From Sphyrna mokarran (lineage: Eukaryota), in assembly GCA_024679065.1 (NCBI GenBank), contig JAGIQG010000013.1, positions 52,700,001 through 52,764,000 on the forward strand: DNA of 64,000 nucleotides. The letters run 5' to 3'. The notes under the pieces are model-generated. The model worked only from the letters and a program-made list of their open reading frames with translations, had not been told where the DNA came from and ran no database searches. Below, in pieces: positions 12,342 to 64,000 of this stretch (position 1 is its first letter; each line of letters opens with the position of its first letter). The position numbers and the translations under genes are program-made.

Positions 12342-12679
12342 GGGCAGCTCAGTAGCACAGTGATTAGCACTGCTGCTTCACAGGTCCAGGTACCTGGTTT
12401 CGATTCCCAGCTTGGGTCACTGTCTGAGTGGAGTTTGCACATTCCCCTCGTATCTGCGTACATTTCCTCCTGCTGCTCTGGTTTTGTCCCACAGTTCAAA
12501 GATGTGCGGGTCAGGTTGTTTGGCCATGCTCAAAAAAATGCCCTTACTGTCCTGAGTTGCGTAGATTAGAGGGATTAGTGGGTAAATAAGTAGGGATAGG
12601 GGGGTAGGGCCTAGGTGGGATTGTGGTTGGTGCAGACTTGTTGGGCCAAATGGCCTCTTTCTGCACTGAAGGGATTCTA
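12342..12679 (+). mobile_element. HE1-like SINE, near full length
   Basis: gggcagc..agtagcacagtgattagcactgctgcttcacag A/B-box head; CR1-like tail gggccaaatggcctctttctgcactg..gggattcta. Confidence 0.85.
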
Positions 12680-32719: not shown

Positions 32720-33430
32720 GTGACCTCAGTCTGGGCACTGCACTTTAGGAAGGACAGATAGACTTTAGGGGACAGTACAGTAGAATTACCAGCCTGGTGC
32801 CAGAGATGAAGGATTACAGTAAATAAGAAAAATTGAAGGTGCTGTGTTTGTTCTCTTGGGGTTCAATGTGACAAAGTGTGAGGTCATCTACTTTAGGCGG
32901 CACAGTGGTTAACACTGCTGCCTCAGAGTACCAGGTACACGGGTTTGAACAGCGGCTTGGGTCACTGTATGTGGATTTTGTACGTTCTACCTGTGTCTGC
33001 ATGGGTTTCCAACAGATGCTCCAGTTGCCTCCCATAGTCTAAAGACATGCAGGATAGGATGTTTGGCCAGGGTAAATTGCCTCTTACTGTCAGGGAAACT
33101 AGCAGAGTAAATATGCAGGGGTAGCTGTTGGGTGGGATTGTGGTCGGTGCAGACTCGATAGGCTGAACGGCCTCCTTCTGCGCTGTAGGGATTCTATGAT
33201 TAGCCCCAAGAAAGATGGAGTATTTTCCAAAAGGTGAGAAGCTAGGAACTGTGAATAAGCAGAGAGATTTACAGATCTAAATATAGAAATTGTTTAAAGT
33301 TCATGGATATGTACAAAAATAATAAGGGAAGTAACGTAATGCTTACTTTTAGCTTAAGGGGGCTGAACACAAAGAGCATGAAGTTATGTTACAGCTTTGC
33401 AGAGCTGTATTTTAATTTCATCTGTATGAC
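32720..33430 (+). mobile_element. CR1-like fragments interrupted by an HE1-like SINE
   Basis: cagtctgggcactgcactttaggaagg and ttcaatgtgacaaagtgtgaggtcatctacttt before the SINE; RT-like sequence resumes after 33200. Confidence 0.6.
32896..33200 (+). mobile_element. HE1-like SINE
   Basis: ggcggcacagtggttaacactgctgcctca head; tail ggcctccttctgcgctgtagggattctatgat. Confidence 0.85.
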
Positions 33431-38328: not shown

Positions 38329-38605
38329 GGCATGGTTCCACAGTGATTAGCACTGTTGTCTCACAATGCCAGGGACCCAAGTTCAATTCCGGCCTCAGTC
38401 ACTGTTTGTGTGGAGTTTGACTTTCTCCCTGTGTCTGCATGGGTTTCCTCTGGGTGCTCTGATTTCCATGGTTGATTGGCCATGCTAAATTGCTCCACAG
38501 TGTTCCTGAATTTGTAGATTACAGGAATAGGGCTTGGGTGGGATTGTTATTGGTGCAGATTCAATGGGCTGAATGGCCTCCTGCTGCACTGTAAGAATTC
38601 TATGA
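38329..38605 (+). mobile_element. HE1-like SINE with internal deletion
   Basis: cagtgattagcactgttgtctcacaatgccagggaccc head; tail gaattctatga. Confidence 0.8.
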
Positions 38606-41660: not shown

Positions 41661-43911
41661 AAATGACGAACATAGTAACTTTCCCCTCAAATGATGAACA
41701 AGACGACAATTTGGGTGTTGTGAATAGAGTATATGGAATCTTTTTGGGATACATGGGATCAATTTTCTAAATTAAATCAGTTGCTTTTCTTCACCTATGC
41801 TTAACCTATCTTGCACCTATAGTACCTGTGAGTGTTCACAAGTGCCATATGTGTCAAACATGTACAAAAGATCTCCTCTTTGAATTCAATATGGAGTTAT
41901 TTGATGAGATTTATTGCACAAACACTGAAAAATTAATTTTGTGTTGCTGCTTCACTTCTAGCTAGCCCAATAATAGTAACAGATTAAATATAAGCCCTAT
42001 GCAGTGAATATGCAATAGAAGTGCCCTATTTTAATAATGGTGTCTGTTGAATAATTATGGAACATTATTAGTCCATTCAGGGAGTCTAAATAAGCTATTT
42101 GCATTTCCATTGTTTCCATTATTAGTCATGTACTGAATATAGTGAATTCTAATGTATATCTAATTAAGGCAAGACTCGGTTCACAGGAAAGAATCTGAAC
42201 AATCTCATTCATGACACATCCTGTTGTAAAAAATTCCCAATTCAAAGTTAAAATACAAATCCAGGACTCAAGAGCTAACAGCAACATTTTTCTTAAATAT
42301 CCCAAGTTATGCTCATCACATATTTTATTATCTCATCACAATTAGACACCAAAATGATTGCAACAACATTTTTTTATACAGATGACTGATATACTGCAAA
42401 ATAGAGGAACAAAGAACTAATTTTCAAAACATTCAGACAGTCAATAGAATAGTATTTATTTCCACTAGGTTTATTTGAATCCAGTAAGCAAGGTATATAT
42501 TAAGGAGGCTGTTTATGAATATTCTGTATTTTAAAATTAGTTTGCCCAGCTCTGATTCGTTTTCAAGCTGCACCCATTTTGCTGTGCCACACTGTATCTT
42601 TAAATGCTAACTTGCCTCATACTTTTAGTCATAGACAGCTCTAAATGCATTTTCCTGCGTTCTTGCTTCTAGTGTTCATCTTTCCTTCTGAATGCTTTGC
42701 AACTAAGTTGACTGTGTATGTCAAAGTCAAGACTAATTTTGAACTTAGTCTATTGTATTTTACAAACAGCGATTTGCTTAAGGGCTGATCTCATTCACCA
42801 ACCTGGCGGCACTTTCTTTACTGCATGAAAAAAAAATATACAACTGGAATTCATATAAATATCAAAAAATGAACTCAGATTTTAGTTTAATTGGGCACAG
42901 TGGCTTGATATGCTTAACAAATTTTTAGAACTAGATGTCAACATTAATATCCACAAATTTCTTGTCTAAGTTTTGGTTTTAGTTTGGTTATTGCAAGATT
43001 AGATACTGAATAGCCATATTGCAGTGTGTGCATCCCTATTGTGAATGAAGTTAAATACTTAGGCGCTGCTTCACATCGTAAGCATGTAGTCTGACAGAGA
43101 AGGAAAGGCTAAATGGGAGACACCTGAAGAAACATGATTGTGGAAAAAATAGTTTTGATGTGTAATTTCCTCTTATTTTGTTTCCTGCATCTCATTGTGT
43201 GACATACATGTGGCAAAACTCTACTAGTCTGTTGGCTGCACAGGCAGTTCATGCTTCTGATATTTCATATTGCACTTTCCAATTGCTTATGTGCCTGTCT
43301 GCAGTAGGTTTGGGAAAGACAGCAAATTTCAAAGGAGAGATTAGCTACACTGGGTTGTTACTCTTATAATGCGTAAGCTAAAGTTTAATTTGACAGAAGA
43401 GTTTGGATTGAACTGGTCAGAGAATATAGATTCAGTTCTTTTTACATCAGCCAAAAATCCAAAACAGGGTCTTAACATTCAAATTAAAAATGAATAGTCA
43501 AACAGAAGAACAGTCAACTCATTCTTGAGTCTGCGAAAGATATAAAAATTGCCAAAGTGAGGGACAAAGTCAACAATTTTTTTTGTAAAGAAATATAATA
43601 CAAGACTGTTAGGTGTGGAAATACATTAAGATAACAATGTAGAAAGCTGAATGAAAAATCTAGATCAGGATTCTATACGTAGCTTAAATGTGTGGGCTAC
43701 AGTTGACAGATAGGTTCAACAGTTATTGCACAAATTGAAAGATCATCCAGATGTTTGCGGGTTCATAGTTCTGATCTTCTATAACTTCCTTTTTAATTGG
43801 AAGCTACATATCATATCAATAGGCAGATTTGCCCTGTAGAAAAATTAAAGGGCAACTTGGCCAAATTTTTCTTACAGGATTCTGAACAAATATCAGAGAG
43901 GAAATTTTGTT

Positions 43912-44260
43912 GAATTCCTACAGTGCAGAAGGAAGCCATTCAGCCCATCAAGTCTGCACCAATTCTATGACAGCGTGTCTTACCCCGACTCATGTTGTAG
44001 CTGCTTAATCCCACAGACCTACCATGGCTAATTCATCTAACCTCTACATCTTGGGACACTGGGGGTCAATTTATCATGACCAATCCACCTAACCTGCGCG
44101 TCTTCGGACGATGAGAGGAAACTGAAACACCCGGAAGAGACCCATGCAGGCACAGGGAGAATGTGCAATCTCCACATAGACAGCAACCCAAGGCCAGAAT
44201 TGAATCTGAGTTCCTGGTGCTGTGAGGCAGTATGGAAACAACTGTGCCACTGTGCCATCC
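43912..44260 (-). mobile_element. HE1-like SINE
   Basis: Reverse complement of the SINE head at 44260 and tail gaattcctacagtgcagaaggaagccattcagccc at 43912. Confidence 0.85.
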
Positions 44261-45715: not shown

Positions 45716-45745
45716 GATTCCACAGGACTTGATAATTGCAAATGA

Positions 45746-45989
45746 ACTCAGTAAGAATTTAGCAACACCAATTATTAATCCAACCGATTTATTTGATAGT
45801 AAAAAAGTGAGCTTTCAACACTCTTGTGTCTTCCTCAGGCAAGTGCCGTGTACTTGCCTGAGGAAGACACAAGAGTGTTGAAAGCTCGCTTTTTTACTAT
45901 CAAATAAATCGGTTGGATTAATAATTGGTGTTGCTAAATTCTTACTGAGTTCTTACCACCCCAATCCAACGCCGGCATCTTTATATCAC
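45746..45989. mobile_element. Penelope-derived fold-back insertion: 103-bp near-perfect palindrome with 12-bp TSD
   Basis: Arms 45744-45846 and 45850-45952 with two mismatches and a 3-nt loop; flanking direct repeat AATTGCAAATGA at 45734-45745 and 45990-46001 (the last 2 nt of the left copy overlap the arm). Confidence 0.85.
45856..45889 (+). ncRNA. Minimal hammerhead-ribozyme-like motif (mirror copy on minus)
   Basis: GC-CTGAGGA-A-GACAC-AAGA-GTGTT-GAAA-GCT-C-GC. Confidence 0.6.
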
Positions 45990-48337
45990 AATTGCAAATG
46001 ATGCAGCCTTGTTCAAAAAAATAGGCTGTAAAGATAAACACAACAAGTGCAGGCCAGTTTAATTTTGGTGGTTGAGAAACTTCTAGAAAATAATATTTTA
46101 GGACAAAATTAATAGACACGTGAACAAAAGTGTGTTAGTTAAGGAAAGCCAGCAAGGATTTCTTAAGGTAAAATTCTGTTTAACTTAGTTTTCCTTGCAG
46201 AGGTAACAGAGAGGACTGATGAAGGTAACACTGTTGATGTAGTGTACATGGACTACAGTATTTAATACAGTACCATACGGATTTGTGAGCAAAGCTATAG
46301 TTCATGGAATAAAAGAGACAATAGCAACATGGATTCAAAATTGGCTGAGTGACAGGAAAAAGACTATAGTGGTTAATAGACATTTCTCAGGCTGGAGGAA
46401 GGTTTGCAGTGGAAGTCGCTAGGAGCTGGGTCTGTTATTTTTCCTGATATCCATTAATGATATAGATCTTAGTGTACAAATTTGTGAATGATACAAAAGT
46501 TGAAAGCATTGTAAACGAAGAAGAGAATTGTTATAGCCTCAAAAGGACCATAGATAGTTGGTGGAATAGGCAGGTAGGCGGCAGATGATACTCAATGCAG
46601 TGAAGTGGTTAATTTTGGCAGAAAAACATAGACAGATTATTTATAAGCAGTACAACTCTAAAGAGGATATAGGAACAAAGGTATATAATTGCATAACTAA
46701 TTGAAGATGGCAGGACAGTTTGACAGATGGTTAATAAAGCATACAGTATGCTAGGCTTTATTGATTGGTGCACAAGAACAAGGAGGCTTTGCCCCCATCC
46801 TCCTGGCTGGCTTAAGGAATGGAGAGTGCAAAATAGAAGGAATAGGCTCTCGGCTGGGTTCCTGCCTGCTCTGAGCGCAAACAATTTTACACTAGGACAA
46901 GCAAGACCTGTCTTTGTCCCAAATGAGGCCCTTAAATGGCAACTTATCGGCCATTTAAAGGCTGTTGCATCTCAGCCTCAATTTGAGGCTGATGGGAGAA
47001 TTTCCCAGAGAATTTCCCGCACCTTAAGGTCCGATGTTCACTGGACTTTAACCCATAATGTCCCAGCCTCTTCTCTGACATTCCAGTCATCCACTAACCT
47101 CACTCCACAATGTCTTCACTATCTTCCCTGTCCTGGAGACCCCAAAAGACTTTCCTTCCTGACCAGTCCTGGGACTTAGGCTGCAACGTCTTTAGCAGGC
47201 TCCCCTTCTGTCTACTGCAGCTCCTGGTGCTGCATGGACAAGAGAACTGCCGACCACTCTAAATGGCTGGCAGCCCTCCAAGGTGGGACTTCCATCCAAA
47301 TGGCTGTGGTCAGACAGAATCAGTGGCAGGATAGAGATCTCACCATCTAAACAATCCTGGCCATGATCTCTTCCTCCTTTAACTTAGCAACCGAACAAAT
47401 AATAAATATTGCATTTTGGCCATTTTTAATATGTAGGCTTGAGGAAACAGTCTCAGTGATGCATGGGCAATGCTCCTTGGGTACTGCTATTTTGCCCCTT
47501 GGGCAATGTCAGACAGGCAATGCCCCAGGAGGGCACCCCATCCTTAGCCCTGACCACCTGGGGGACCTCCATGGCCTCTCTTCACTCCAGTGGGGTTGAC
47601 CAGCAGTTCTCCATTAGTGGGGAGCTGTGGTAAATCCCTCAGGAGTGAACTATTCTTGACATGGGAGGATGAGGGGGCGTGGGGAGGCTAACAGCCTGGA
47701 GACTTTAGTCCTGAGCCCACTAATGATATTAAAATTATGATCTTAAAATGTAAATCAGCTCTGTTCCAATTTACTGTGTGGAGCTGATGACACTGGAAAT
47801 GCAGACCCCAGAGATGCGCAGATGCATAGCGTTCAACGGGGAGCCTGCTAAATGGTCTTCACTCACGTTCCTGGCTAGCTATATTGCTAGAGCAGCACAA
47901 TGGGCAGGGAGAATTGCCCTCTTATTTTTCTGCTCCATTCAGTTCAGTTGCACATTAAAAGATGTTTTAAGTCATCAACAAGTCCTCATTATTTTAAACC
48001 TTCTTGCCTATCCTGTAAACAGATTGGCTTCTTCCTCCTCCCCATTTCTATTTTAGGCGTTGGGCTCTGTGTCAGCAGCTGGTGCTCATCCTGGGCTTGT
48101 ATTTAGTTAATATATATTTTCTATATGATGCATATTTCACATTAATTAACTCATGATGTTGGGTGTGTTTTTATTTGCAGAAGATACTTGTAAATTAATT
48201 AACTTTTAGACAGTAATTCTGGTCTCATAAATAATCCAAAGGTTGGGGCTCCCTTAATTAGAAATATAATTAATTTCTTAATCTAGTAAATTTTGATTGA
48301 ATGGTCAATTGCACTAATTCAGAATGAGTGCGCATTA

Positions 48338-48395
48338 CTGGAATTTTACACCCCCTCCCCACTCACCCTGGAATCATGCCAGTAAAATTCTAGCC
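48338..48395. mobile_element. Very short MITE / hairpin
   Basis: CTGGAATTTTAC...GTAAAATTCTAG terminal inverted repeats. Confidence 0.5.
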
Positions 48396-50159
48396 CATAT
48401 GTCTGAAAGTCATAAGCTTGAACATCCTAATTCCTTTTGCTCATGTTTGGAAGCAAAGACACAATACATTCCTTATAATGAACATACATTAGAGAGTGTC
48501 AGCTTTACATTGCATAGAATAAGAAATATCTTCTCTGTTTTGGATAGCATATTGACATTCCTCAGCATACTAAATATCAGGATTCTCAACATCTTTCCAT
48601 CAAATTATTTTTTCTAATGTTTAATAATGTTTTGCACTGAAGAAAAGTTTCACAACAGCCAATTCAGTATAGTTTTCTGAATGAACATTTATGACAAGTT
48701 AGTTAAGATGATCAGGAACAATATGCTGAACAATATCAATGGTGGGTGTTCACTCCCTCATTCAGCTGAGGTAGATCTTGAGATCTGCCTCTTCTACCTG
48801 CCCTATTGTGAGTTCATAGCATTGTTGATACACCACTGGAAACTAAGATGTGTGGGCAGTCATGATTGGCAACCAAATACGCTACATAGATGGGAAAGCA
48901 AGTAAGTTTGAGTGACGTGCTCCCTATTCTGCAGGTGATAGAAACTTGGGCATTATTTTACCATTCCTTTTCTTATTATCTTTGCAGATTCATTAAAACA
49001 GGGCTCTTAGCTTTAATTCTCTCCACCTAGTTTTTCTTTTGTTCCCAGTTTCTCTGACTTGCGTCTACAATATACAAACTTTTAAAATCCAAACTTGGTG
49101 TCATCTAATTATGGGTCTTAGGTTTTTTAATTAAAAGAATGATCTTTTGCTTTACTGTTGTCTTTTGATCTTTGAATGTTATGCAGTTTCCATACACACA
49201 ATACAAATTGAACATTTTAAATTAGAAGTGGGGTGACAGAAACATTTTGTGTGAAGGATAAGATTATTAAGGTCTTTGGGCATAATTGTCAAAAAATAGA
49301 GGTGCAAATGCTGTGAAGACATTTTAATGTTATTCTACAACCATGCCATAGAAATATTAAACAATATCCTGCGATCAACAATCATCTTGATAATGATAAT
49401 TCATAATGTGTGCACTGGTGCCTAAACTATTACCATGGTGACAGAGCCCTCATAATTTGTGTTACCTGCAAATTATCCAGTTAGTGTTCTGAGTGACCAC
49501 CTTGTAGTGGTTTGACTCAAGTAATAGAGAATGCCTGAATTATGTGAGTAGATAGTTAAGTAGTTGATCAACTAAATTTTAAATAAAAGAGACAACAAAA
49601 AAAATTATGACCGTTCAAATCAGCATCTGGCCTACTTTTTTAAAAAAATTAAGGATCAACTGATGTCACCCTAATTAGAATTATTCAACAAGTTATCAAT
49701 TTGTTATCTATCTGGTGTTGACAACATCAGAAGTAGGAACTAGAATAAGCTATTTGGCCCCTTACCTTGCTCCATCATTCAATAAAATCATAGCTGTTAC
49801 TATTATGGCCTAAGCTCCACTTTTCCTGCCTGCCCACGTAACCCTTGGAGATTAAAAATCTGTCTAACTCAGTCTTGACTATATTCCAGTACCGTCTGGG
49901 GTTAGAATTTCAAAGATTAAGGACCCTACGAAAGAAGAAATATCTTCCCATCTCCTTCTTAAATGAGATACACATTTACGAATATTTTCCATCGGTCATC
50001 TGCAGTGTCTGGTCACCTGTTTGCTTAGCTGCTGGTACTTGGCAAGAATACTGAATGCATCCAGTACTGCAGGGTTGCTATTCTGGTTGGCAATCAAGGC
50101 CGGCAGTGAGGAGCTACAGCACATGTGCCGATCTCAGCTACGATAGATCACTGCAGTCG

Positions 50160-50319
50160 TGATGTGTAGAGATGCCGGCGTTGGACAGGGGTAAACACAG
50201 TAAGAAGTCTGACAACACCAGGGTTCGTCTGACGAAGGCCATAGAGCCGAAAGCTTACGCGTTTACTATCAAATAAATCGGTTGGATTTAAAACTGATGT
50301 TGTCAGACTTCTTACTGTG
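50160..50319. mobile_element. Penelope-derived insertion with partial inverted terminus
   Basis: gatgtgtagagatgccggcgttgga head shared with the 45.9 kb and 63.3 kb copies; 25-bp inverted repeat 50196-50220 / 50295-50319. Confidence 0.8.
50226..50259 (+). ncRNA. Minimal hammerhead-ribozyme-like motif
   Basis: CGT-CTGACGA-A-GGC-CATAGA-GCC-GAAA-GCT-T-ACG with perfect 3-bp stems I and II. Confidence 0.65.
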
Positions 50320-52919
50320 ATCGCTGCATGCCCAGTGACCCGCTCAGTGCTACGCTGCTGGCATTCTTGGGGGCACTCTATAGTGCAGAGTGTAGGAGAT
50401 CATTTTGAAAATACCAACAACAATAAAACAATGGAAGTTACCCCCATTTTTACACAAATTTGGCACTTAGAATGTTTTTGGAAGAATTCTGGCTAAAGGA
50501 ATTGATTCTTTTATTTTGATCTAATTGATTTTAGTTGGAAGTAGATGGTCAGATTCAACAATCCCAAGCAATGTTAGTAGGTGTGTTAAAGGTCAGACAG
50601 ACTTTCTGCTCTTAATTACTATACAGATGTTAGAAAGTGAATGTGTGTTGCTGGTCTGTGAAAGAAGGACCACGTTTTACAAGTATTCCCCATTGTCCAA
50701 TCACCTGCTGACACTCACCATCCAGGCTCATATGTAAAATAAATAGCACTTAAGTGAAGCACTAGATGGCCTCTTACATTACAATTCAAAAATACTTCAG
50801 TGGAGTAAAGCACTTTGGAACCTGAGGTTGTGAAAGGTACAATGAAGAGGCACATTTCTTTTTTCTCTCCCAGCTGGCCAATTAAGCCAAAGTACACCAA
50901 ACATTGATGCTTTTAGGAGAATAGCTAAAAAATGGGAAAGAAAAAGTGAAAAAAACTGAATAAATCCAATGGACCAGACAGTGTGTAATACAGAAACATT
51001 AAGTGAAAATGAGTTGAAGCAGGCAATTAAATAGCTTATTTAAGTCCCAATTAAATAAATTTAATTCAGCAATCAACTGAATCTGAACTGTTGATGCCAG
51101 GGTACTGAGGCAAAGAGGGAAATCGGAGATACTCATACAAATCTTGGAAAGGCAGAATGCATTTGTTGCTATACTCAGCTGATGGAAAGGCAAATTGCTC
51201 ATTCATTAACACTGAGATACAGATTACTGCATGGCTGGCAAACACCTTATTGACTCAGGAGTGGCTGATATAAAACAATGATTGGCAACCTGTGCAACTA
51301 AATTAACCATTTCCACGTCCCCCCCCAAAGAATAAACAACTACTCTTACTTAATTTATTCTTCTTCTACCCACGCATGCTTTAATTATTGTCCTTTTTCT
51401 TTTTAATGTCACATATCCAAATAGTAAAATGGCAATTCAGTCTCATTACACTGTTTGTGAAGACATCAACTGTGACAACATGCAGTAGTTTCTTGCATTT
51501 TGTATACTGTTTCAACAATGTTACTTTGTCTTGGACATTAGTATTCAGTTTTTTCTTACAGCAGTCTTCTCATCACATTGTTACATGTTCCTTTTAGTGT
51601 TTTACTTGAACCAGGTATTTCCCTTCATCAACAGTTCAGTGCCTTATCAGCTTTACTACAATCACAGCTTAAGTTTCTGTTCAATATCTACTCTATCATG
51701 TAGCAGATCCAATTATGGTTAACTAGCTGCCATAGTTTATTTATTTTTAGATTTAGTAGGTTGGCTGTGAAGAAATATTTTTCACTGGAGAAAAATTGAA
51801 GCACAACACTTGCATTTATGTAGCATCCACATGATATACAGCATGACACTCTTATTCACAAAGGAAATGAAATAAAGAGATAACAGTGTACGGGCCACAG
51901 CAGCAGATGCTTAACAAAGAGTTGACCACCACAATGCAATGAGACGGACAAGTACCCCTCATAAAAATAAATGATTCCTGTGCATTGAATGTAAATCTCA
52001 ATATATAATAAAACTTTAATAATCAGGGCTTAAGTTAATACTTTAATGCAACTGCATTTCCCTTTCTAACCTATAAGTTATATTACAAGGCAATAATCAG
52101 TAGGTAAATTTTATATCCAGTGCAGTCCTCACGTTTCAAGGAGCCAAAACTTGCTGTAGGTGCAAAACAATCTGGCCATGTGACTTATTAATAGTCATAG
52201 AACATGCAGATCTAATTCAGAACTACTTTCTTCTGAATTGAAAAAGCAGATCTACATCTAATGGGTTCAGTATTTTTTTTTAATCCAATTCAATCAAATC
52301 GAGGCTAATTCATTGTCTCAACAAGTTGAGACATTCCCAGTCGAAGCTGATTGGATTTGGCATTGCACCTCTTCCAAAGCTTGAACTCATTTGCATTTTT
52401 CCAAAAGGCCGAGATGCAGCTTTTAAAAATTACTTCAAATGAAACTAAAATGTAACTTAATGACTTCAATCAAGTACAGCATGTCAATGCAATATTTGAT
52501 CTTGGCCAAAAGGCTAATAGGAGAAAGAATTATGATCTCATCTGGTGGAAATTTACAAGAATTGACTTCAAAAGTTTCCTACTACCAGGATTTGCTTATT
52601 TAGATGACTTTTCCATCCCCGTTGGATGCCATTCCCCAAATCAAAGATCCATGCCAGATGGCTCTCTGCTCCAAATCCCATGTTGGATGGCACCCTGCCT
52701 TGAGGCCATATGAGATGGAACCCTTGGTCTATACCATCCAGAGTTTCAAACAGTCTAACTTCAATGTGCATGTCACCACACAAACAAACAACAGTTATAA
52801 TGTTGCTGTGTGGGTTGAATCCTAAATAAGAACTTTTCCATGGAAGAAGGTTAATAGTTGGGAAGTCATTTTCCTTATTGATAGATGCTGAAATCAAAAC
52901 AGCTATTTCAAGGAATTAA

Positions 52920-53642
52920 GGCAGAAATTCTCCAGTCTCTGGATCATTGGAGAGATGCACATCAGGATTCTGGGGAAGTCCTGATATGTTGACATTTGTG
53001 GGAATTACTCAGAAAGTTTTAACTTACTTTGGGGAATTCCCCTGCTCACAGGACCCTGCATAAATGTCTGCAGCATGGGGCAGTTCTGACGCATTTGCCT
53101 GAATAATTTCCCAAGAATAGTGAGACAATTTAAAATCTACTTTTTAAATCCTTGATAACTACAAAACTAACCCCCCAATCACTCAAATAATTCCCACATG
53201 CCTCAAGATCAACCTTACACTCTACACACTTGCCACCTTATCCATCTACCACCATACCCATCTGCTATCCTATCAACCACCTTACCTATCTGTCCCCTAA
53301 CCACTTACGTATCCATTTACTTCATCAACTCCAGTTACCAACCCACTTAATTCACCCACATTAATCACATGTCTTTGCACCTACCCATTCACTTATTTGT
53401 CCACTTATCCATTCACTAATATTCAAATTGGGCCTTTAAATTCACCATAAAACAGTTAGTAAAATGGGGATGTTCTATCTACCCTGAACTCTGTTGTGAC
53501 CATGCTCTCTGAGGGTGGCTATGCTTTGTATTTTTGGGAAAACCAAGCTCTAATAATCTCAAAGAAAAATGGAGCAATGATGACTTGAGGCTTGTTAGAG
53601 CAAAGCAACAATCTATTGTCCTTCTGGCAGAGATCTAGGCCA
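52920..53642. mobile_element. Decayed MITE-like element in the spacer of the inverted duplication
   Basis: GGCAGAAATTCTCC start, AGAGATCTAGGCC end, C/A-rich CACCCAC/CACTTA low-complexity interior. Confidence 0.45.
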
Positions 53643-53669
53643 GAGTATTTATTCCTCAAATAATACTGA

Positions 53670-53697
53670 GCCTTTTGGCAAAGATCAAGTATTGTAT
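53670..53697 (+). pseudogene. U2 snRNA 5' fragment (mirror copy at 52487-52514 minus)
   Basis: GCCTTTTGGCAAAGATCAAGTATTGTAT versus U2 GCCTTTTGGCTAAGATCAAGTGTAGTAT, 25/28 identical. Confidence 0.65.
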
Positions 53698-54719
53698 TGA
53701 CATGCTGTACTTAGCTGAAGTCATTAGATTACATTTTAGTTTCATTTGCAGCAATTTTTAAAAGCTGCATCTCGGTCTTTTGGAAAGATACAAATAAGAT
53801 CAAGCTTTGGAAAAGGTGCAGTGCCTACTCCAATCAGCTTGGATTGGGAATGTCTCAACTTGTTAAGACAATGAATTGGCCTTGATCTGATTGGATTGGA
53901 TTAAAAAAATACTGAGCCCATCAGACGTAGATCTGCTTTTTCAATTCAGAAAAAAACAGTTCCGAATTAGATCTTCATATTCTATGACTATTAATAAGTC
54001 ACTTGGTCAGACTCTTGACTAATTTGTATTTTTATTCTCAAGTCTGTTTTTACAGATTGTCATTTACATAACTTAATTTTCCAAAGTCAGATGTTTTGAT
54101 TCTGTTCAAGTCTTGAGTGAAAAAGTAACTTGCAATCTTGCATTTAAAGAAGTAATGCTGCAATAAAGACTCTTGCTGGCTTGCAAATGCTTTATAGGTT
54201 TCTGAAAACTGAAGAAGAATGCTGCTTCTGATCATGAAACCATCCTAGGAGTTTATTTTCTCAGCATTGATCTTTTGCATAACATCTCACATCTTCATTC
54301 CCTAAATAACAAATTAGTCCATGGCAGATTTACTCAGGCCTCCAAATGTGCAACTTGCCTATCTGTCAGATGTCAATAGACTTGGGATCCAGTGTTCTTT
54401 CCTTATTTGCTCTCCAGTAAAGAAAGGTAAGAACAATGTTTAGTGGCGTAAACATATTTAATGGCAATGTTATCCTAGTTTGCTAGGTTTCCATGGCCTA
54501 ATTTTATCTTTGCAGTGAGCTTCCACAGATCATAAGATGAAAGAGCCCTAGTAAAATATAACTGTTAGATAGAATTTTTATTGATCCTAGATTTTCTTTT
54601 CTAACAGAAAATGCTTGACCTCTACTCGTCTCATGTAACTTGAAATGAAGCAGCCAATGTAAGCAAAGGACATCAACTGCATTGAAAGGCAGCTATTGCA
54701 TTAAAAGTATTAAAAGACT

Positions 54720-55115
54720 TTCAATTATCTTACTCATTCCATGGCCACAGGACACCCAAAGTGCTCTATGGGCAATGAAGCAACTTCACATACTGTTGTA
54801 ATGTAGGGAAAAATGATGGACAAATTTGTTATGTGATAAGTTCATACAAATAGCAATTGCATCAATGATCTGATGGTCTGTTTTAGTGATAATGGTTGGC
54901 TAATAAATTTACTGCCATGATTCGAGTGTTCCTCTTCATACAGTGCCATTGGATGTTGTGCATCCACACAATTGGGCACACAGTTTTACATCTCATTTGA
55001 AAGAGGTTCATCTCTGATAATACAGCTTAATCTATTAGGTTATGTGCACAAGTCTCTGAAGTAATGACTGAACCCATGACCTTCTGACTCTGAAGTGGCA
55101 ATGCCATCGCTGAGC
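54720..55115 (-). mobile_element. Ancient SINE (SacSINE1/Deu-like); related fragments near 23680-23790, 29130-29450 and 50540-50850
   Basis: caggacacccaaagtgct..caatgaag..ctgttgtaatgtagg tail and gactgaacccatgaccttctgactc head on minus. Confidence 0.5.
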
Positions 55116-55712
55116 AAAGGGGAAGTTCTTTTCCAGTTTGTGCTCTTATTTGCAAGTAATGGTGTTAGAAGAATCTGTTGATAGTACAATGTAAACCATT
55201 CGCTATCATTTTTGATTTTAAAAGCAGATTTAGATGAGGAAGCACAATGCTGGGAAGTACGTGTAACAGTGACAAAACAAGAGGTCATCAATTTATGATA
55301 GCAAGAAAACCAACAGGGAATTCAGAAGAGACATCTCTATCAAAAGAGTGGTGAAAATGTGGAACTTGCTAACACAACGAATAGTTGATAGACATATTTA
55401 AGGAGAAACTTTAAATGCAGATGAGGGAAAAGGAATTCCAATTATAGAAATAGACGAGGAAAGATTGGAGGAAGCTGGAACGAAGTATTAACATTGCCCT
55501 GGACCGAATGATCTATTTTTGCGTAAAATTCTTCAGGGGAGTCAAGCTGAAGCAAATGCTTTGGAGATATTACTTTTCCCACAGTGCTTACTGTTTTATT
55601 CATAAATCTCGAAATCCACCACAATGAAAAATATACCTGTGCAATTCTATAATTTTCCCACAATACAACAGAAGAATATTGAGGATAGCTGCAGCGTAAA
55701 ACATGTCTCATT

Positions 55713-57305
55713 GTAGAGTCATAGAGGTTAGTAGCATGGATACAGGCCCTTTGGCCCAACTTGTCCATGTCAATCAGGTTTCCTAAACTAAACTAGTCCC
55801 ATTTGCCTGCATTTAAGAACATAAGAAATAGGAGCAGGAGTAGGCCATCTAGCCTCTCGAGCCTGCCCCACCATTCAATAATTTATAGCTGATCGGATAG
55901 TGGGTCAATTCCACTTACCCTCCTGCTCCCCATAACCCTTAATTCCCTTATTGACCAGAAATCTATTTACCTGTGACTTAAACATATTCAACATATTAAA
56001 CATATTCACCACTTCAATTGGCAGAGAATTCCAGAGATTCACTTCTGAGAGAAGAAGTTCCTCCTCAACTCTGTTCTAAACTGACTCCCTCTTATTTTGA
56101 GGCTGTGTCTTCTAGTTCTTGTTTCCTTTCTAAATAGAAAGGATCTCTCTGCCTCTATCCTATCGAGTCTGCTCGTTATCTTACGTGTCTCTATAAGATC
56201 ACCCCCCAGCTTTCTAAACTCCAACGAGTACAGACCCAATCTACTCAATATCTCCTCGTGAGCTAACCCTCTCATCTCCGGCATCAACTTGGTGAATCTT
56301 CTCAGTACTCCCTCTAAGGCCAATATATCCTTTTGCAAACTAGCGGACCAAAATTGCACACAGTACTCTAGTTGTGGCCTCATCAGTACCTTGTACAATT
56401 GCAGCAAGACCTCCCTGCTTTTATAATTCATTTCCCTCGCGATAATGGCCAACATTCCATTTGCCTTCTTGATCACCTGCTGCACCTGCAGACTGAGTTT
56501 TTGCGATTCGTGTACAAGGACCGCCAGGTCCCTCTCCAAGTAGCATGTTTTAATTTTTCACCATTTAAATAATAGTCCATTTTATTATTCCTTCCAAAGT
56601 GGATAACCTCACACTTGCCTACGTTATATTCCATCTGCCAGATCCTTGCCCACTCACTCAGCCTATCCAAATCTTCTGCAGATTTTCCACAGCCTCCACG
56701 CAATTTGCTTTCTCACTCATCTTTGTGTCATCAGCAAACTTTGTTACCCTACACTCAGTCCCCTCCTCCATATACGGTAAACATTTGAGGCCCCAGCACC
56801 GATTCTTGTGGCATGCCACTAGTCACTAACTGCCAACCAGAAAAGCACTCATTTATTCCAACTCTCTGCTTGCTGTTAGATAGCCAATCCTCAATCCACA
56901 CTAACACTTTACCCCCAACTCTGTGTACCTTAATCTTCTGCAGCAACCTTTTGTGAAGCACCTTATCGAACACCTTCTGGAAATCTTAAAACACCACATC
57001 CACCGGTTCCTGTCTGTCAACCGCACTCGTTACAGCCCATATTCCTCTAAACCTTTTCTATCCATGTACTTATCCAAATGTCTTTTATATGTTGTAATTG
57101 TACCTGGCTCCACCACTTCCTCTGGCAGCTCATTCCACATACACCCCGCCCTCTGTATGGAAAAAGTTGCCCCTCAGGTCCCTTTTAAATCTTTCCCCTC
57201 TCACTTTAAACCAATGCCCTCTAGTTTTGGACACCCCTACCCTGGGGAAAAGACCTTGGCTATTCAGCTTATCGATGCCCCTCATGATTCCATAAATCTT
57301 TATCA
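55713..57305 (-). mobile_element. CR1-like 3' end (55713-55813 plus 57032-57305) split by a younger CR1 insertion
   Basis: ..ctagtcccatttgcctgcattt | agcccatattcctctaaacc.. rejoins into a continuous CR1 3' UTR. Confidence 0.8.
55814..57031 (-). mobile_element. 5'-truncated CR1-like LINE (RT C-terminal part, frameshifted)
   Basis: ORFs 56755-56973 (FDKVLHKRLLQKIKVH..SGMPQESVLGP), 56473-56703 and 56039-56539 (RPQLEYCVQFWS..RTELRRNFFSQ); tail aagaacataagaaatagg. Confidence 0.92.
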
Positions 57306-57474
57306 GGTCTGTACTTCCAGAATAATCAGATTTAATTTGTCACAGATTATACTACTAGTTTTCAAATTTCCCAGAACAAACAAAGTGAATTTCAGAATAC
57401 AATCCCAAAACATTCATAAAAATGCTGAAATCCAATGTAAATAAACTGGAGTTATTTGGTCAATTTTAAGTTGT

Positions 57475-57940
57475 CACATGTCTGTCCTTGACCTGCTGCA
57501 ATGCTCCTCTGAAGCCCGGCACAAGCTCGAGTAGCAGCATTTTATCTTTGGATTGGGAACATCTTACCCTTGGGACTCAAAGTTGAGTTAGGCAGCTTTA
57601 GAGTGTGACTTTTCTCCTCCATCTAAAAGCTCTTCTTTAAAAAAAAATCCCATACACGTATTGCCTCGATGCGGTTCCCCCTCGCCGGCCCCACACCCCC
57701 GGCCACCCACCTCTTCCCACACCAAGCCATCTGTTCTTGTACTGAAAAGTTGCTACTTTCTCTTGCAATCTCTTACAGCTCTAACACATTTTCCCTCCCT
57801 TCAGTTCCCATGAAGAGCCAAAGGACTCAAAACCTTAACTTTGCTTTTCTCTCCTTATAAATGCTGCAAGACCAGCTGCATTTTTCCAGCATTAATATTC
57901 TTGTTTCAAATTCCAGCATCTGTAGTATTTTTCTTATTTT
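57475..57940 (+). mobile_element. Penelope-like element 3' end: GIY-YIG endonuclease C-terminus plus terminal repeat
   Basis: HMSVLDLLQCSSEARHKLE*QHFIFGLGT..PLGLKVE matches the PLE endonuclease ending (E..I..LGT..P.GLN); followed by a degenerate hammerhead-like motif at 57804-57839 and tail ttccagcatctgtagtatttt. Confidence 0.75.
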
Positions 57941-59399
57941 AATATTAAGTGGTGGCCTTGGATATAGGTCATTATTCATGGTTTTTCTTCAACTTTGTGT
58001 CATTTTTGAATTTCTATTTTTTGGGTGGGAGGGTGGTCGCTGTTCACCTTTTTAAGCAGGTCTCTCATGTTTCAATTTGGTGTTTTTGTGACAGCCGGAG
58101 ATAATTGCAACAGTGCACAATTTAAACCTCAATTTTACTGCAAAAAGCAGCAGATACATCTAGGTAGACCTCTTTCACTCAGAGGTTTAAGAAAATAAAC
58201 CTATATCCAATAAATGCCACACTCAATTCAGAAATGTCTCTGCAGTGGCGTGATTAATTTTGAGTAAATTCTCCAAGGTGATAGTTGGAGAAAAGCAGAA
58301 CGAGGCATAATTAAATGACCAGATTGTGTGTAAAAGTGGAGAGACAGCTGTAGACAGTGAAAAGACTGATACTGTTCAAAGTGCTTAAATGGAACACTAA
58401 AAAGATGGCAAGGGAAAAAATACATAAAGCTGGTCTCATTATTTAGATCCTATTTCAGATCTTCTCCAAATCATGTGTCTTTTCTCTCCAGCAATAGTCT
58501 GAAGGTATGCTACAATCCTAATATTATATATCTGATGATAACCTGCAACCTTAAACAGAAGCTGAAAGCAGACTACAAACTGAAGTTGATCTGAACAGAG
58601 TAAAATACAAATAATAAGGACTGTTAGAATGAGCTCGAACACACAGAATGACACAAGGCACACATGTACAGAAGCAACTGGTAATGGCAGAGGAAGAGGA
58701 ATCTATCATCTCAGAAGCCTTGGTTGATAAGTTGGGATCTTAAGGGACCTAATTAAAAAGAATGCTTCCTCAGCCTTAAGTGCTAGCACTATTGTCAGAG
58801 TTAATGCAAGCTTATGGGAAGCTGGTAGGGAGGTTCATCAGTTGTATGTACATGGTTTAGAAACATTACGGTCCACCATGAAACTATCACAACTCCATAT
58901 GTTTCAGCATTGGAGCACCTTCCATTACTCCTCACTACGCCTCCAATCTCTCCAAACAACATCCCCTCCACCTTCTCCCATCCAACTTCCTTGTACTAGG
59001 GCCTAATAGTAGTGAGCATTCTGTTTCCCTAGAATATCAGATAGTTGTCACCAAATAAGAGTTGTCTGCATTGAAATAGTGCCTACAAATGTAGTAAAAT
59101 ATTCCAGGTGAAATATTCCACTGCACACCAAGCCCCATAAGAAAATTTCAGATTAGGTGACCAAAACTTTGGTGAATGTTGAAGGTTTTAAGAGAGTCTT
59201 AAATGAGGAAAGAGACAGGCAGAGAAGTGGAGAGAATTCCAGAACTTAACAGTCTTGATAGCAGAAAGTTTGCTGCCAATTGTGGGGAAATGAAAGTTGC
59301 ATACATAACATTAGGAGCAACGCTACACTATCCACTGACCAAAATTAAGCAGGGCTCAGCAGCATAACATACTGGAACAGACACAGGTGATGATATTGG

Positions 59400-59800
59400 A
59401 GGGGGATTTTCCGCTCCCATTTTTATATTAAGCAGATTTCCGAAAAGGCTTTTACACTGGTAGGATTTCCCTGATTAATAGTCTCTGCTCATCCTTACCA
59501 AAGACGTAATGGAAATTCTAACTTTCATTAGCCTCAATCTAGATATCACTATCATAACTTTACTCCTCGTTAAATGTTAAACTGTCCATGGGGCAGTGCC
59601 AGAGGCTGGGTGCCATGGTGATGGTGGTGGTTGCGGAGCTCTGCCGGAGGCGAGTTCTGTGGGTGGAGGGGGACAGGCTTCCCAATCGATTAAAAACCTA
59701 AGTTGCTGGCAGGGCAGGCTGCCAGCTGCCTTTCACATGCCTTCGGGCTGTCTTCTGCTGAAGTCTGCCCAATTGTTCCCTCAAGTCATGTGATCCTCTT
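59400..59800. mobile_element. GC-rich MITE-like remnant
   Basis: GGGGGATTTTCC start; gggcagtgccaga..gggtgccatgg interior shared with other MITE-like blocks. Confidence 0.4.
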
Positions 59801-61711
59801 CTGCTGTGCTGTCCTTAAAGGGTCAATCACCACAATAATAATATGATGGGATTAAACTCTATATGCTGATGCTTAACTGTAGCTTTGGTGAACACTTGCA
59901 TCAATCTGGGTAAAACGGTTTAGTTATCTCGTTCGTAGCACGTGCTGGATTGCTATTGAAGGTTAAAACATTATCTATAGCGCATTGCATGGATTTCAAA
60001 GTGAAACTAGGGCAACTGGAGTTTTATATATATAGCTACAAGTTAAATACTTCTCCAACAGTGTCACTGTTTTATCTCACCAGGTTATTTTACTTGAGTG
60101 TAATTGTTCTTGTGATACATTAAATTATGGATAGTTGGCAGCATTATGAATGTAATTTCTTCTGATTGTGATGACATCATAAGCTATGAAAGCTAAGCAG
60201 AAGTGATTTATGATTGCCATCTGAACCCTCAGATTAAATTACAACTCCTCCTCATTTATCATTTAGAATTGTTTCACAAAATCTATTGTAGCCTCAGGAA
60301 AGTGAAGATGGTGTTGAAATCATACTGTGCACTGTGAAGTTCAATGGTATTGCTACCACTATGATAGGAAGGAAAGATATTTGTTCTAATCGCTGTGCAG
60401 TGCCACAGGAAGCCCTCTCATAGTTCATTCAAGCAGCCACTTGTCCAGATACTGAACGTTGGTGGCTAGACGTTCATGGTAAGCATCACAGATGCTATCC
60501 TCATCTAATGACCTCAGTTGTAACTTCCATCAGGCTATCATTGGAAAATAATTAGAAGCAGGAACCACAGTTTGGTTTCCTAATGCCTATCATGCTGCTG
60601 ATCTTTGTGGTTCAGGGCCACACTAGTGTATTTGCCTTTTGAGGCATCAAAAGTGCATTGTTGTAGTCCTCAAGTAGAATTAGGTAATAGTTAAAAGCTT
60701 AATGGTAAAATAATTCCATTTCAGTCTCAATGTTAATATATGTTCAGTCATTTTCACAGTAAGCCTCCTAAAAGACAGGAAGAGACGGCAAGAGATTTGT
60801 TGGACTAATAATATCCATCGTTGCTTTATGAAGCATGACTTGCTGTCCCAAGTACTACAATTTTGCATTTAAAAGTCCAGAATGCAGTGAAATTATCAGC
60901 TATATGAAAATAAAAAGACAGGGGAGATTTTAAAGAAAACAATATTATTGAAGAGAGAACCAGAGTCTAAACCACATAGGGTTTCAAATTACACATCATA
61001 AAGTAAATCCTTATCATTGTTCCCAAGTGCTTCTTTGTTGTCTATAAATCTCATGAGGCTTATTACTTATTTTGTTTTGCTTATCACATAATTTTTGGGT
61101 TTTAGAAGTCGGCAGTACCATGATTGTGACTTTTGGGTGATGAGCTAAGTCCTCTTGTAAAATGCTGTGTTTTGTTTAATTGACAGAAGTTTCGTCTTGC
61201 TTTTTGCATCATGAAGAGTCCTATTTCCTCATGAAAAGTAAAACCAATCACCCAAACTGAATTTCTTGGCAACCCCAGACCACGTAGTTATTTACCTTAA
61301 AAATTGTCTGAAATCATCACAACATTCCTTTTCTTTTCAGAGGTACTGAATTGAAGGCATGAGCTGTTTGAACTTTCCAAAGAAGTACTTAATAATATCA
61401 AGTGAAATTCCCCAGTGTGGCATTTCAGCATAGCCATTAACCCCTGCACTATAGTAATTTCACATGAATATCTTAGTCAGAATATACTACCAGAAATAAT
61501 TAAGCTTCATTAGCTGAGATTACTCTGTGTAGCAGAGGTTTCAAGCCATTAGCGGAGAAAAAAAAACTTCAGCTGGAACTACGCATTTGTACATTGTCAT
61601 CCCATAATGTGTTTCAAGGCCATAGTTCCCCACCACTAACACCCCCGCCCACCTAGTAACTAAATCATGAAAATGGGCAATTATTAAAACTAGTCAGAAG
61701 CAGGAACTTAC

Positions 61712-61884
61712 ATTTGTCGATCAGCACACATCTTGTTCACATTTTCCCATTCCACATCAAGCTGAGTCACTGCATCCTGTATTTGCTTTCCGTCTGTATA
61801 TGAGACATTCCGCAGAACACTAGGTTTCTTGCTGTGAACTGCTTCTACTTGGCCCGAGAGCGTCTCCAAGTTCCTTTTTATTTT
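61712..61884 (-). CDS. DMD: Dystrophin internal coding exon, equivalent to human DMD exon 43 (spectrin-repeat rod domain)
   Basis: Acceptor ctccag|AAAATA, donor CAAAT|GTAAGT, 173 nt (same as human exon 43), phase 0 to 2. Encodes KIKRNLETLSGQVEAVHSKKPSVLRNVSYTDGKQIQDAVTQLDVEWENVNKMCADRQ, matching human dystrophin motifs HSKK, QLD.WE.VNKM..DRQ. Confidence 0.95.
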
Positions 61885-63300
61885 CTGGAGTTCAGAAAAG
61901 ATATGAGATTGATTTTTTTTTCGTTGTGCAAGATAAACAAATAACAGCAAAAACATATCTGCTGACTGATAGGATTTACAAGTATTAGGGTTATTCAAAT
62001 CTTGATTTACATAAAAGATATGAAAAACATCCACAGTATGTTTTTTTAACTTAAGTGAGTTCAGCCCATCAGCAACTCTTTGTAAAGCAGAACCATTCCC
62101 ATATTATGAATAAAACAAGATTATCTTTTGAGAATGCAGTACTAATTCTTTATCACTACCAGAAACTCATCTTTACCCATCCAGAAAAGGGCAGCAGTCC
62201 GATGCAGACTAAAAATTCAGAATCTAAGACAGATGCTCCCAAACCACAGGCCGTGGATGATCATTCATGGTCGCAATCTCTGAGATAGTAATGGGGAGAC
62301 TCTGGAGGGACAGTCCTGAAGTTGGTGTCAAGAGTCCATTACACGTGCAAGACAATTTGTAAGTAAAGGCCAGACCACAGTTTTCAAAACGATTGTGAAC
62401 AAAACTATTGCCCCACTCTACAGCTCGATAGTTCTCCTCCCACTCTCACCCTCTCTGGATTACATCAATTTTTAAGCATCACTATGGAATCACTACGGTT
62501 GAGAAACACTGCTCTAAGAAGTAATGTTATCCAAAACCATCATTATGGCTAAGAATTGGAACAAATGTTGTTTCTTCCACATACAATTTATCTCTATCCC
62601 AAAATAATTCCTAGAAACTACAAAACAAAAACAGTATTCTCATCTGACAACAGAATCTTTCAATGAATCTTCCCTGATACATGTTTTTTCTGAATATGTC
62701 ATGCGTATTTAAAAAGAAATTAAGTCAATTGGGATCATGGATATATTTTCCACTAAATTCCGCAATGAAAGGAACCAATAAATTGTGGATTCAAGTTGCA
62801 GGTTATGTTTGGTTATTTGTAAAAACAATTCAACCAAAAACAGGTGAAAAGCTGAGGGATCTGATAATATACCGCACGGGCTTCAAGATCTCACTGGTTT
62901 AAAATCTCTGGAATGGGAACTAAGGCCAGAATTTTACAGATTGCTTATGGGCAGTCGTGTCCCTTACCCAGAAGAACCCAAAATCACATGAGGAGGACCA
63001 AGCACTCATCCCGGTATCACTGTGCACCCGCATGATATTTTGGTTAGTGGGTATAAGTGAGTCAGTTGTGTGCCTGCCAATTATTAAGCTGCCAGCTTAA
63101 TAAATTAAGTTTTATTGAAAGATTCTGTTGCCAGATGGAGAAAGCTGTTTTTGTTTTATAGTTTGTAGGAATTCATCTGAGGTAGACATAAATTGGAAGT
63201 TCAACTAACTTGAATTTTACGTTGCTGGTGCCATATTTAGGTCAATGCAAAACAACAAATTTGTCATGCAAGAGCACAATGACTGGAGAATGGAGCAAAG

Positions 63301-63534
63301 ATGTGGAGATGCCAGAGTTGGCCTGGGGTAAATAGAGTAAGAAGTCTCACAGCATCAGTTTAAAGTCCAACAGATTTATTTAGTAGCAAAAGCCACTAGC
63401 TTTCGGAGTACTCGTTGTCCTTCATCAGATGAGTGGGACTTCATTCAAATCCCACTCACCTGATGAAGGAGCAATGAGACTCTGAAAGCTAGTGGCTTTT
63501 GCTGCCAAATAAACCTGTTGGACTTTAATCTGGG
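63301..63534. mobile_element. Penelope-derived fold-back insertion with two hammerhead-like motifs and a probable 10-bp TSD
   Basis: Arms about 63356-63438 and 63450-63532; flanks TGGAGCAAAG (63291-63300) and TGAAGCAAAG (63535-63544). Confidence 0.85.
63457..63494 (+). ncRNA. Minimal hammerhead-ribozyme-like motif (mirror copy about 63394-63431 minus)
   Basis: Plus: CAC-CTGATGA-A-GGAG-CAATGAGA-CTCT-GAAA-GCT-A-GTG. Minus: CAT-CTGATGA-A-GGA-CAACGAGTAC-TCC-GAAA-GCT-A-GTG. Confidence 0.65.
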
Positions 63535-64000
63535 TGAAGCAAAGGCAGATTGAGTTGATAAAAGCTACTGAGAGTTAGGTGTGGGGTTAAATTAGAGATT
63601 TTTCTCACTGCTTTCTTGTAACGTCTTTGCACATTTTCTTTAGTCATTCTGAGAATTTGAATCCATTGGCACCTTCAGTGCACTGGTTAAGCCCATTAGC
63701 ACCTCAACAGATCGATACTGTTTATTCAGCAGGGGCACCTCCTCTGAGGAGGAAGAGAGGGGCTGAAAGGAAAGGAGGCCCAGGTGGACATACATTGCCT
63801 CAGGGATGAACATTTGGGAGATGAGGTACAGGCACAGGGGATGTAGGGAAAGCAAGAATGATGAATCCACAGATGACACCACTATCAGCTGTCAGGCAGC
63901 AATCCAATCACCTCAACATGACAGACTTAAGGGTGATTCCAACCTACTACTTTTTTGACAGGTTCGGTCGGGAGACGTGCGCGTGCTTCGATCCACATTG

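Follow-up and report, generated by a model that had tools for sequence, protein, structure and literature searches.

The window analysed here, a stretch of DNA of 64,000 nucleotides, contains five hammerhead-like motifs near an exon of a dystrophin-family gene, and the question it raises is what kind of element carried them there. The exon matches dystrophin residues 2037-2096 (E 6.7e-08), and the three insertions that bear the motifs (A, B and C; Table 1) likely sit in the introns flanking it. The favoured reading, held with a probability of roughly 0.78, is that these insertions are dead-on-arrival 3' ends of an abundant, endonuclease-bearing lineage of Penelope-like elements (PLEs), the terminal repeat of which contains a minimal hammerhead of the AGCU class.

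Table 1. Features of the three insertions and of the host exon, numbered by window position
Feature	Position	Strand	Remarks
Left target-site duplication of A, 12 bp	45734..45745	.	12/12 identical to 45990-46001
A inverted arm, without tail	45746..45844	-	98/99 letters match 45852-45950
Minimal hammerhead A-	45809..45838	-	C:A mismatch interrupts stem I at 2.1-1.1
A sense arm: hammerhead, AATAAA box, 3' region, tail	45848..45989	+
Minimal hammerhead A+	45858..45887	+	2-bp stem I; 5-bp stem II with G:U at 10.1-11.1
One-sided tail of A, 39 nt	45951..45989	+
Right target-site duplication of A	45990..46001	.	alignment of relatives' contigs starts at 45990 (3/3 relatives)
Left target-site duplication of B, 10 bp	50146..50155	.	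9/10 match to 50319-50328
B sense arm: 40-nt tail (50156-50195) and 3' region	50156..50222	-	truncated downstream of hammerhead
B inverted arm: hammerhead and AATAAA box, without tail	50223..50318	+
Minimal hammerhead B+	50229..50256	+	stems I and II 3 bp each, every pair Watson-Crick
Right target-site duplication of B	50319..50328	.
Dystrophin-family host gene exon, 173 nt	61712..61884	-	AG and GTAAGT ends
Left target-site duplication of C, 10 bp	63291..63300	.	9/10 match to 63535-63544
C sense arm, 3' end complete but decayed	63301..63444	-
Minimal hammerhead C-	63397..63428	-	stem I 4 bp including two G:U, stem II 3 bp
C inverted arm	63445..63534	+	ends ~20 nt earlier than inverted arms of A and B
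Minimal hammerhead C+	63460..63491	+	stems I and II 4 bp each, G:U at 10.1-11.1
Right target-site duplication of C	63535..63544	.

Five minimal hammerheads in three insertions

All five motifs named in the original prediction are found in the window, each reading CTGANGA-A-stem II-GAAAGCT-H, and they are genuine and above chance expectation. GAAAGCT occurs at 16 sites, five of which belong to the hammerhead motifs, and a relaxed minimal-hammerhead descriptor run over the window matched these five motifs only. In 300 dinucleotide shuffles the relaxed descriptor gave a mean of 0.25 matches (maximum 3); with AGCT required, 300 shuffles gave a mean of 0.017 (maximum 1), against the 5 observed. The motifs represent three independent sequences, carried by insertions of 163-244 bp. 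In all five, the CUGANGA and GAAA-NN-UH cores stand without a helix III, a single unpaired base, an A, lies between A9 and 10.1, and the palindromic 15.2-16.2 positions hold G-C.

The minimal hammerhead of PLEs (min-HHR) was published in 2014 by Cervera and De la Pena (PMC4209133). It shares with the present motifs CUGANGA with an extra base after A9, stem II, GAAA, a palindromic two-base centre, U-H and a short stem I, along with consensus families whose stem changes compensate one another and motif pairs lying on opposite strands. Fig. S3 of that paper has AGCU entries for Schistosoma, rotifers and painted turtle. The painted turtle entry has a CAAAUAAAUC box downstream, the same box as in the insertions of the window, and is given without the star marking linkage to a coding PLE. 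What differs from the published families is the stem sequences, which are particular to the present subfamilies. The searchable part of the supplement text has no shark entry, and a literature search on cartilaginous-fish Penelope-like ribozymes yielded, as judged by its listings, no shark-specific description; these families may already have names in Repbase or Dfam.

An Rfam search with E-values up to 1 returned no hammerhead family among its matches. Three matches to microRNA precursors, located on hairpins, and one weak match to U2 all fell below the gathering score and were read as hairpin look-alikes. Scans for the motif pattern gave 0 matches in viral contigs and 0 in genome contigs. 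In metagenomes the pattern scan returned 6 loci, all dismissed as chance occurrences without stem II and without a BLAST match to the elements; 2 of the 6 sit within prokaryote-like coding sequence.

Stem covariation and predicted folding

The stems had been predicted to change in compensatory fashion under selection on RNA structure. Covariation does hold between the subfamilies, which amount to three lineages, but the stems quoted were those of the better arm each time. Stem I GC/GC is present in A+ only, A- having a C:A mismatch at 2.1-1.1, and stem II GGAG/CTCT is present in C+ only, the fourth pair being C:C in C-. At 10.1-11.1, where the pair is usually conserved, two of the five motifs have G-C and three (A+, A- and C+) have G:U, which is the change expected from CpG decay. 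Across the three lineages, 19 or 17 of 21 stem cells are paired, as against permutation means of 14.7 and 14.0. With slid partners pairing falls from 88% to 16-58%, a comparison likewise confined to three lineages and limited to 5 pairs because the MAFFT alignment opened a gap within stem II, on its 3' strand. No letter variants fall within the hammerhead columns among the variant rows listed from the contig alignments. The excess over permuted and slid partners supports selection on the stems between subfamilies.

This selection most likely acted on the parent elements rather than on these copies, since the predicted hairpins of A and C make dimer activity of the present copies unlikely. In both insertions each motif is predicted to pair with its own antisense arm in a long hairpin, the core having an unpaired probability of at most 0.001. 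The proposal that AGCT indicates activity as dimers thus stands as far as the architecture is concerned, which is of the dimer type, but self-cleavage of these copies as dimers is improbable with the motifs of A and C predicted to be locked in this way. The present copies are predicted to be inert, and they show decay, in their stems and, in C, at the 3' end. Folding of A and C also yields a second, candidate helix on the 3' side of the hammerhead, with an unremarkable folding energy (z -1.16 and -0.91).

The same folds bear on whether the motifs could serve the host, as intronic ribozymes or hairpins acting on the processing of the dystrophin-family pre-mRNA. A- and C- do lie on the same strand as the host gene, but folding predicts that each of these two motifs pairs in full with its antisense arm, and the decay of the stems also argues against use. 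So does the distribution of the insertions: B is missing from the orthologous site in one relative (X11), where a single contig record passes over it and the alignment resumes at 50319, leaving an empty site, and the alignments of relatives break at the boundary of A. Host use is barely credible.

Insertion layout and the family in relatives

In each of the three insertions inverted arms are joined head to head, and just one of the two arms has a complete 3' end. The common terminal sequence noted in the original prediction is present once per insertion as the ccaacgccggcatct end, but on three of the six arms only; in B the arm that has it lacks the hammerhead, and in C it has 3 mismatches over 16 letters. 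A and B have one-sided tails, of 39 nt and 40 nt respectively, and their inverted arms reach 63 nt and 62 nt past the cleavage site. The arms of C are identical at 72 of 86 ungapped positions. Target-site duplications match at 12/12 positions in A and at 9/10 in both B and C. The score of the A duplication was equalled by 0 of 300 random flank pairs and that of C by 14 of 300, which taken alone is moderately beyond chance.

Contigs from relatives extend this picture. In one of them (X3) the contig alignment ends at 50155, the boundary of B. The 3' end of the family is fixed at the B tail, loose ends before 50165 occurring in 890-1729 contigs per run, and it is fixed in all four contig runs among the loose ends listed. 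Inversion junctions are many: among those listed, 50193-50222 is joined to 50251-50288 in 1-3 contigs each, and most fall downstream of the hammerhead, in a table that holds the top rows only and favours short arms that fit B. In the best-matching run, sequence of the A type reaches a depth ~50-100 times that in three relatives, and this difference in depth between lineages bears out the claim that the family has diversified.

The lengths of the arms invite another reading, in which the insertions belong to a discrete, non-autonomous family with units of ~140 nt (hammerhead, AATAAA box and tail), transcribed alone and dependent on a Penelope-like protein for copying in trans, with several subfamilies. 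All five hammerhead-bearing arms, representing three independent events, start 6-16 nt upstream of the core, giving units of ~137-144 nt in 3/3 insertions. A 3-kb element truncated at random would suggest a wider spread, and this counts against truncation. The window holds no copy longer than these units, depth is very high and varies between lineages, and mobilisation in trans of pLTRs alone is on record (PMC3846280). However, the arm-start pattern was ascertained from copies that keep the hammerhead, and the same lengths would result if copying tended to stop or fold back close to where the terminal repeat begins. Inversion points, moreover, vary across the family, often lying downstream of the hammerhead among the junctions listed, and the sense arm of B is 67 nt only. 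A discrete family is considered unlikely, though the lack of a coding partner in the window lends it some weight. It is also rather doubtful that the insertions represent a self-propagating mini-element of ~140 nt, a Penelope-dependent SINE with an RNA starting just upstream of the hammerhead, amplified to very high abundance in lineage-specific subfamilies without ever having a coding region, and with the second helix bringing the AATAAA box beside the tail. Were this the case, the two-ended insertions would form a genome-wide record of the Penelope protein priming on both target strands.

The insertions had further been described as retrozyme-like. Animal non-LTR retrozymes (PMC7229834; 10.64898/2026.07.22.740005) share with them a non-coding nature, a core of the type I hammerhead kind and a relationship to PLEs; they are tied to PLE terminal repeats, have been found in one cartilaginous fish and are allowed minimal motifs too (10.64898/2026.07.22.740005). 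On a retrozyme origin the insertions would be tandem monomers that excise themselves and circularise, and retrozymes are known for same-sense tandem repeats, circular RNAs and canonical hammerheads (PMC7229834), whereas the arms here form solitary inverted pairs whose hammerheads are minimal. Inverted arms leave one sense motif per transcript, and no tandem array occurs at any of the three insertion sites; two consecutive hammerhead-bearing units, the criterion of the preprint (10.64898/2026.07.22.740005), do not occur here. All five motifs are of the minimal type, with no canonical helix III and no loop-loop contact. The insertion ends do not coincide with the cleavage site: measured from the core, they fall 96-102 nt away on the downstream side and 6-16 nt away on the upstream side. 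Inversion points also vary across the family. The description is not supported, and a retrozyme origin is highly improbable.

Proposed origin and significance

The Penelope origin put forward for these sequences is supported, the layout matching that of published 5'-truncated PLEs and the motif being the PLE min-HHR (PMC4209133). Insertions of EN+ PLEs (Penelope/Poseidon, Neptune; PMC3846280, PMC8557442) share head-to-head inverted terminal repeats, a one-sided tail, short duplications and 5' truncation. They differ in that no coding region lies between or beside the arms here, and a check for an autonomous partner found no reverse-transcriptase or GIY-YIG frame among the 24 frames of at least 100 aa in the window, which counts against the favoured reading. 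An inverted pLTR, a 31-bp tail and duplications of 8-10 bp are described in PMC3846280, where self-priming is preferred as the origin of the inverted copy. PMC8557442 describes 5'-truncated insertions that have an inverted copy and a tail of 30-40 bp, and such a tail at one end also appears in PMC11167929. The latter work, on Poseidon of Anolis carolinensis (PAc), found that both strands are cut and extended, that reverse transcription has two start sites, and that hammerhead cleavage is dispensable for insertion in vitro. PAc and the present insertions share two reverse-transcription start sites defining the tail, the mechanism being taken over by analogy rather than from sequence comparison, and a terminal-region hammerhead, dispensable for insertion in vitro.

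Under the favoured Penelope-like origin, a GIY-YIG nuclease together with a reverse transcriptase would cut the target with a stagger of 10-12 nt. Both target ends would then prime copying from the 3' region of the RNA, at two start sites ~40 nt apart, a twin-priming step proposed on the model of PAc. Copying would halt after ~65-145 nt, and the two short copies would join head to head. The template was presumably RNA that had not been cleaved, since every copy runs across the cleavage site and includes the entire core. In the parent elements, two same-sense terminal repeats would likely pair via AGCU as a dimer, with the stem covariation arising from selection there.

Both the motif and the insertion layout are already published, and the copies described here are further examples; as the findings stand, their significance is small. 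Their useful angle is one of scale, an abundant family with subfamilies rising at different times providing a natural data set for questions about PLEs. One such question is what maintains selection on the hammerhead, given that insertion proceeds in vitro in the absence of cleavage (PMC11167929), and another is how the head-to-head inverted copy is formed. Among the insertions of the window, A and C are symmetric, as self-priming would produce, which counts against twin priming.

Hammerhead-like motifs within three short insertions

A pattern search of the window with the form CTGANGA-A-stem II-GAAAGCT-H recovers five motifs, which account for 5 of its 16 GAAAGCT sites. A relaxed descriptor allowing any two central bases returns the same five and no others, and on 300 dinucleotide shuffles it yields a mean of 0.25 motifs, or 0.017 when AGCT is required. 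The five hammerhead-like motifs of the original prediction are thus present above shuffled expectation and confirmed as a genuine feature of the window; no hammerhead family is listed there by Rfam. Named by insertion and strand, they fall in three elements (A, B and C) and so represent three insertions rather than five events.

Positions of hammerhead motifs, insertions and dispersed repeats in the window
Feature	Position	Strand	Basis or structure
A- hammerhead	45809-45838	-	pattern search
A+ hammerhead	45858-45887	+	pattern search
B+ hammerhead	50229-50256	+	pattern search
C- hammerhead	63397-63428	-	pattern search
C+ hammerhead	63460-63491	+	pattern search
Insertion A	45746-45989		two arms head to head
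Insertion B	50156-50318		two arms head to head
Insertion C	63301-63534		two arms head to head
Dispersed repeat copy	10131-10322
Dispersed repeat copy	12347-12682
Dispersed repeat copy	17612-17868
Dispersed repeat copy	32900-33199
Dispersed repeat copy	38339-38605
Dispersed repeat copy	43907-44255

The arms of A are identical at 98 of 99 letters and those of C at 72 of 86 ungapped letters. The complete common 3' end is carried by one arm per insertion, the sense arm. In A and B the inverted arm reaches a common end point beyond the cleavage site (63 nt in A, 62 nt in B), so that 39 and 40 nt, respectively, form a tail on one side only; in C it extends 43 nt past the site. Flanking direct repeats match at 12/12 letters in A and 9/10 in both B and C; among 300 random flank pairs none scored at least as high as the A repeat, and 14 at least as high as the B or C repeat. 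Both arms of A (45852-45950 and 45746-45844) have G:U at 10.1-11.1 and an N7 unlike the loose-end consensus of other copies in sequencing-run contigs, differences which were therefore either present in the source copy or homogenised between the arms after insertion. A candidate second helix, from the GTTGGA box to the tail, can be drawn at 45912-45971 (+) in A and 63314-63371 (-) in C, where one pair is C-G in C but U-A in A; its folding energy is unremarkable (z-scores of -1.16 and -0.91).

The motifs of A, B and C add members to an already described kind of hammerhead. The minimal hammerhead of Penelope-like elements (PLEs) is defined in PMC4209133 by an extra base after A9 and a palindromic 15.2-16.2, and the same source reports families with compensatory changes, opposite-strand pairs, action as dimers and a low level of cleavage in vitro. 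AGCU entries appear in Fig. S3 of that paper, so the constant AGCT belongs to a published class, and the painted turtle entry there is followed by the same CAAAUAAAUC box as the window copies. Dimer cleavage is ascribed to Lunse et al. by a review (PMC6765202). In PMC8557442, PLEs are described with 5' truncation, an inverted copy and a 30-40 bp tail; most PLE insertions are reported as 5'-truncated with a single terminal repeat retained (10.64898/2026.07.22.740005), and an expansion of PLEs in the introns of the whale shark is described in 10.1101/443036. Literature listings yielded no shark-specific description of such elements.

In all five hammerhead-bearing arms, from three independent events, the core is preceded by 6-16 nt of upstream sequence, and no longer copy occurs within the window. 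This could reflect a separate, non-autonomous unit about 140 nt long, or simply a preferred stopping point combined with ascertainment. The arm starts at 45848, 50223 and 63444 delimit units of about 137-144 nt. A retrozyme-like identity, also proposed originally, does not suit these loci, since retrozymes are described as same-sense tandems (PMC7229834; 10.64898/2026.07.22.740005) and A, B and C are not. Pattern scans of viral contigs, genome contigs and metagenomes gave no true relatives.

Stem pairing and accessibility of the cores

Covariation was assessed with one sequence per insertion over seven pair positions (21 cells). The better arms pair in 19/21 cells against a column-permutation mean of 14.7 (P 0.002) and the other arms in 17/21 against 14.0 (P 0.037). 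In a five-row alignment 88% of cells pair, versus 16-58% with slid partners, and 11 of 500 shuffles attain this value. The predicted stem covariation is thus supported against permutation and slid-partner controls, albeit from three lineages only, in a register taken from the tested sequences themselves and by a test other than R-scape.

Stem decay in the copies is seen as C:A at 2.1-1.1 in A-, as G:U at 10.1-11.1 in three of the five motifs and as a C:C mismatch in stem II of C-. When whole insertions are folded, the probability that the core is unpaired is ≤0.001 in A and C, where it is predicted to be sequestered because each arm pairs with the opposite arm. The B+ core is partly free (0.65) in the predicted fold, but B+ lies antisense to the host gene, and no partner of the same sense occurs within 4 kb. 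Given this decay and the predicted pairing of the A and C cores, selection on hammerhead structure most likely acted in parent elements. Two terminal repeats of the same sense, as in a full-length tandem parent, would pair via AGCU to form helix III, a pairing established for the minimal-hammerhead class.

Boundaries in other genomes and a proposed route of insertion

Contigs from four of 24 listed runs (the best-matching run, X1, which may be the source of the window itself, and three relatives, X2, X3 and X11) were aligned to 45848-50700 at 82% likeness. Summed contig depth, which is not copy number, is 2.0 million on the A sense arm in X1 and 21,000-42,000 in the relatives, 0.67-0.97 million on the B tail in all four runs, and about 12-35 in most unique bins of 47306-49735 in X1. 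The family is shown to be very abundant, with its A-type subfamily expanded in one lineage.

B is absent at the orthologous site in X11, where record 14 aligns to 50086 and again from 50319, with 46 letters between versus 232 in the window; an X3 contig ends at 50155, the last base of the left duplication of B. Contigs of all three relatives start aligning at 45990, the first base of the right duplication of A, and from this right boundary we infer an empty A site. Between 890 and 1729 contigs per run have loose ends before 50165 whose sequences agree for a few letters before diverging (agreement about 0.4), so the family has a fixed 3' end. Among the joints listed, 50193-50222 is linked to many points in 50251-50288, each link in 1-3 contigs. 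The point of inversion thus shifts between copies, is in many cases asymmetric and in many cases excludes the hammerhead; the leading joints and loose ends favour arms short enough for B and speak to the existence of junctions, not their frequency. In X1, a few contigs (2-4 per joint) join 45954-45988 to 50165-50197, an A-type 3' end directly onto another copy's inverted end, suggesting that units are occasionally arranged in tandem or nested.

Boundaries, duplications, tails, fixed 3' end and variable junctions form the observed part of the insertion mechanism. Penelope protein is reported to nick and extend both target strands, with two nearby reverse-transcription start sites defining the tail and hammerhead cleavage dispensable for insertion in vitro (PMC11167929). 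By analogy, each end of the cut target would prime a short copy, with a tail in one case and tailless in the other, and the two would then join head to head. The copies span the cleavage site with an intact core, so the template was uncleaved RNA. The unequal arms of B fit two-ended priming; for A and C, whose arms are symmetric, the self-priming model of PMC3846280 is suitable as well.

Genomic setting and other repeats

None of the 24 frames of at least 100 aa in the window matches a reverse transcriptase or nuclease. One of these frames contains a 173-nt exon (61712-61884, minus strand) with canonical AG and GTAAGT splice ends, which matches dystrophin residues 2037-2096 and, if the gene is dystrophin rather than utrophin, presumably corresponds to DMD exon 43; A, B and C therefore likely sit within introns of a minus-strand dystrophin-family gene.

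An inverted repeat at 52166-52515 and 53669-54016 (arms of about 350 nt, 89% identity, 1.15-kb spacer) probably represents a mobile element of its own. At 53660-53808 Rfam gives a weak U2-like match that falls short of the gathering score. Inverted-repeat pairs without a hammerhead occur at 17198-17437/17763-17991 and 62570-62671/63107-63209 (78-90% alike), and a dispersed family of 200-350 nt repeats, of 65-80% identity, is unrelated to the hammerhead elements.
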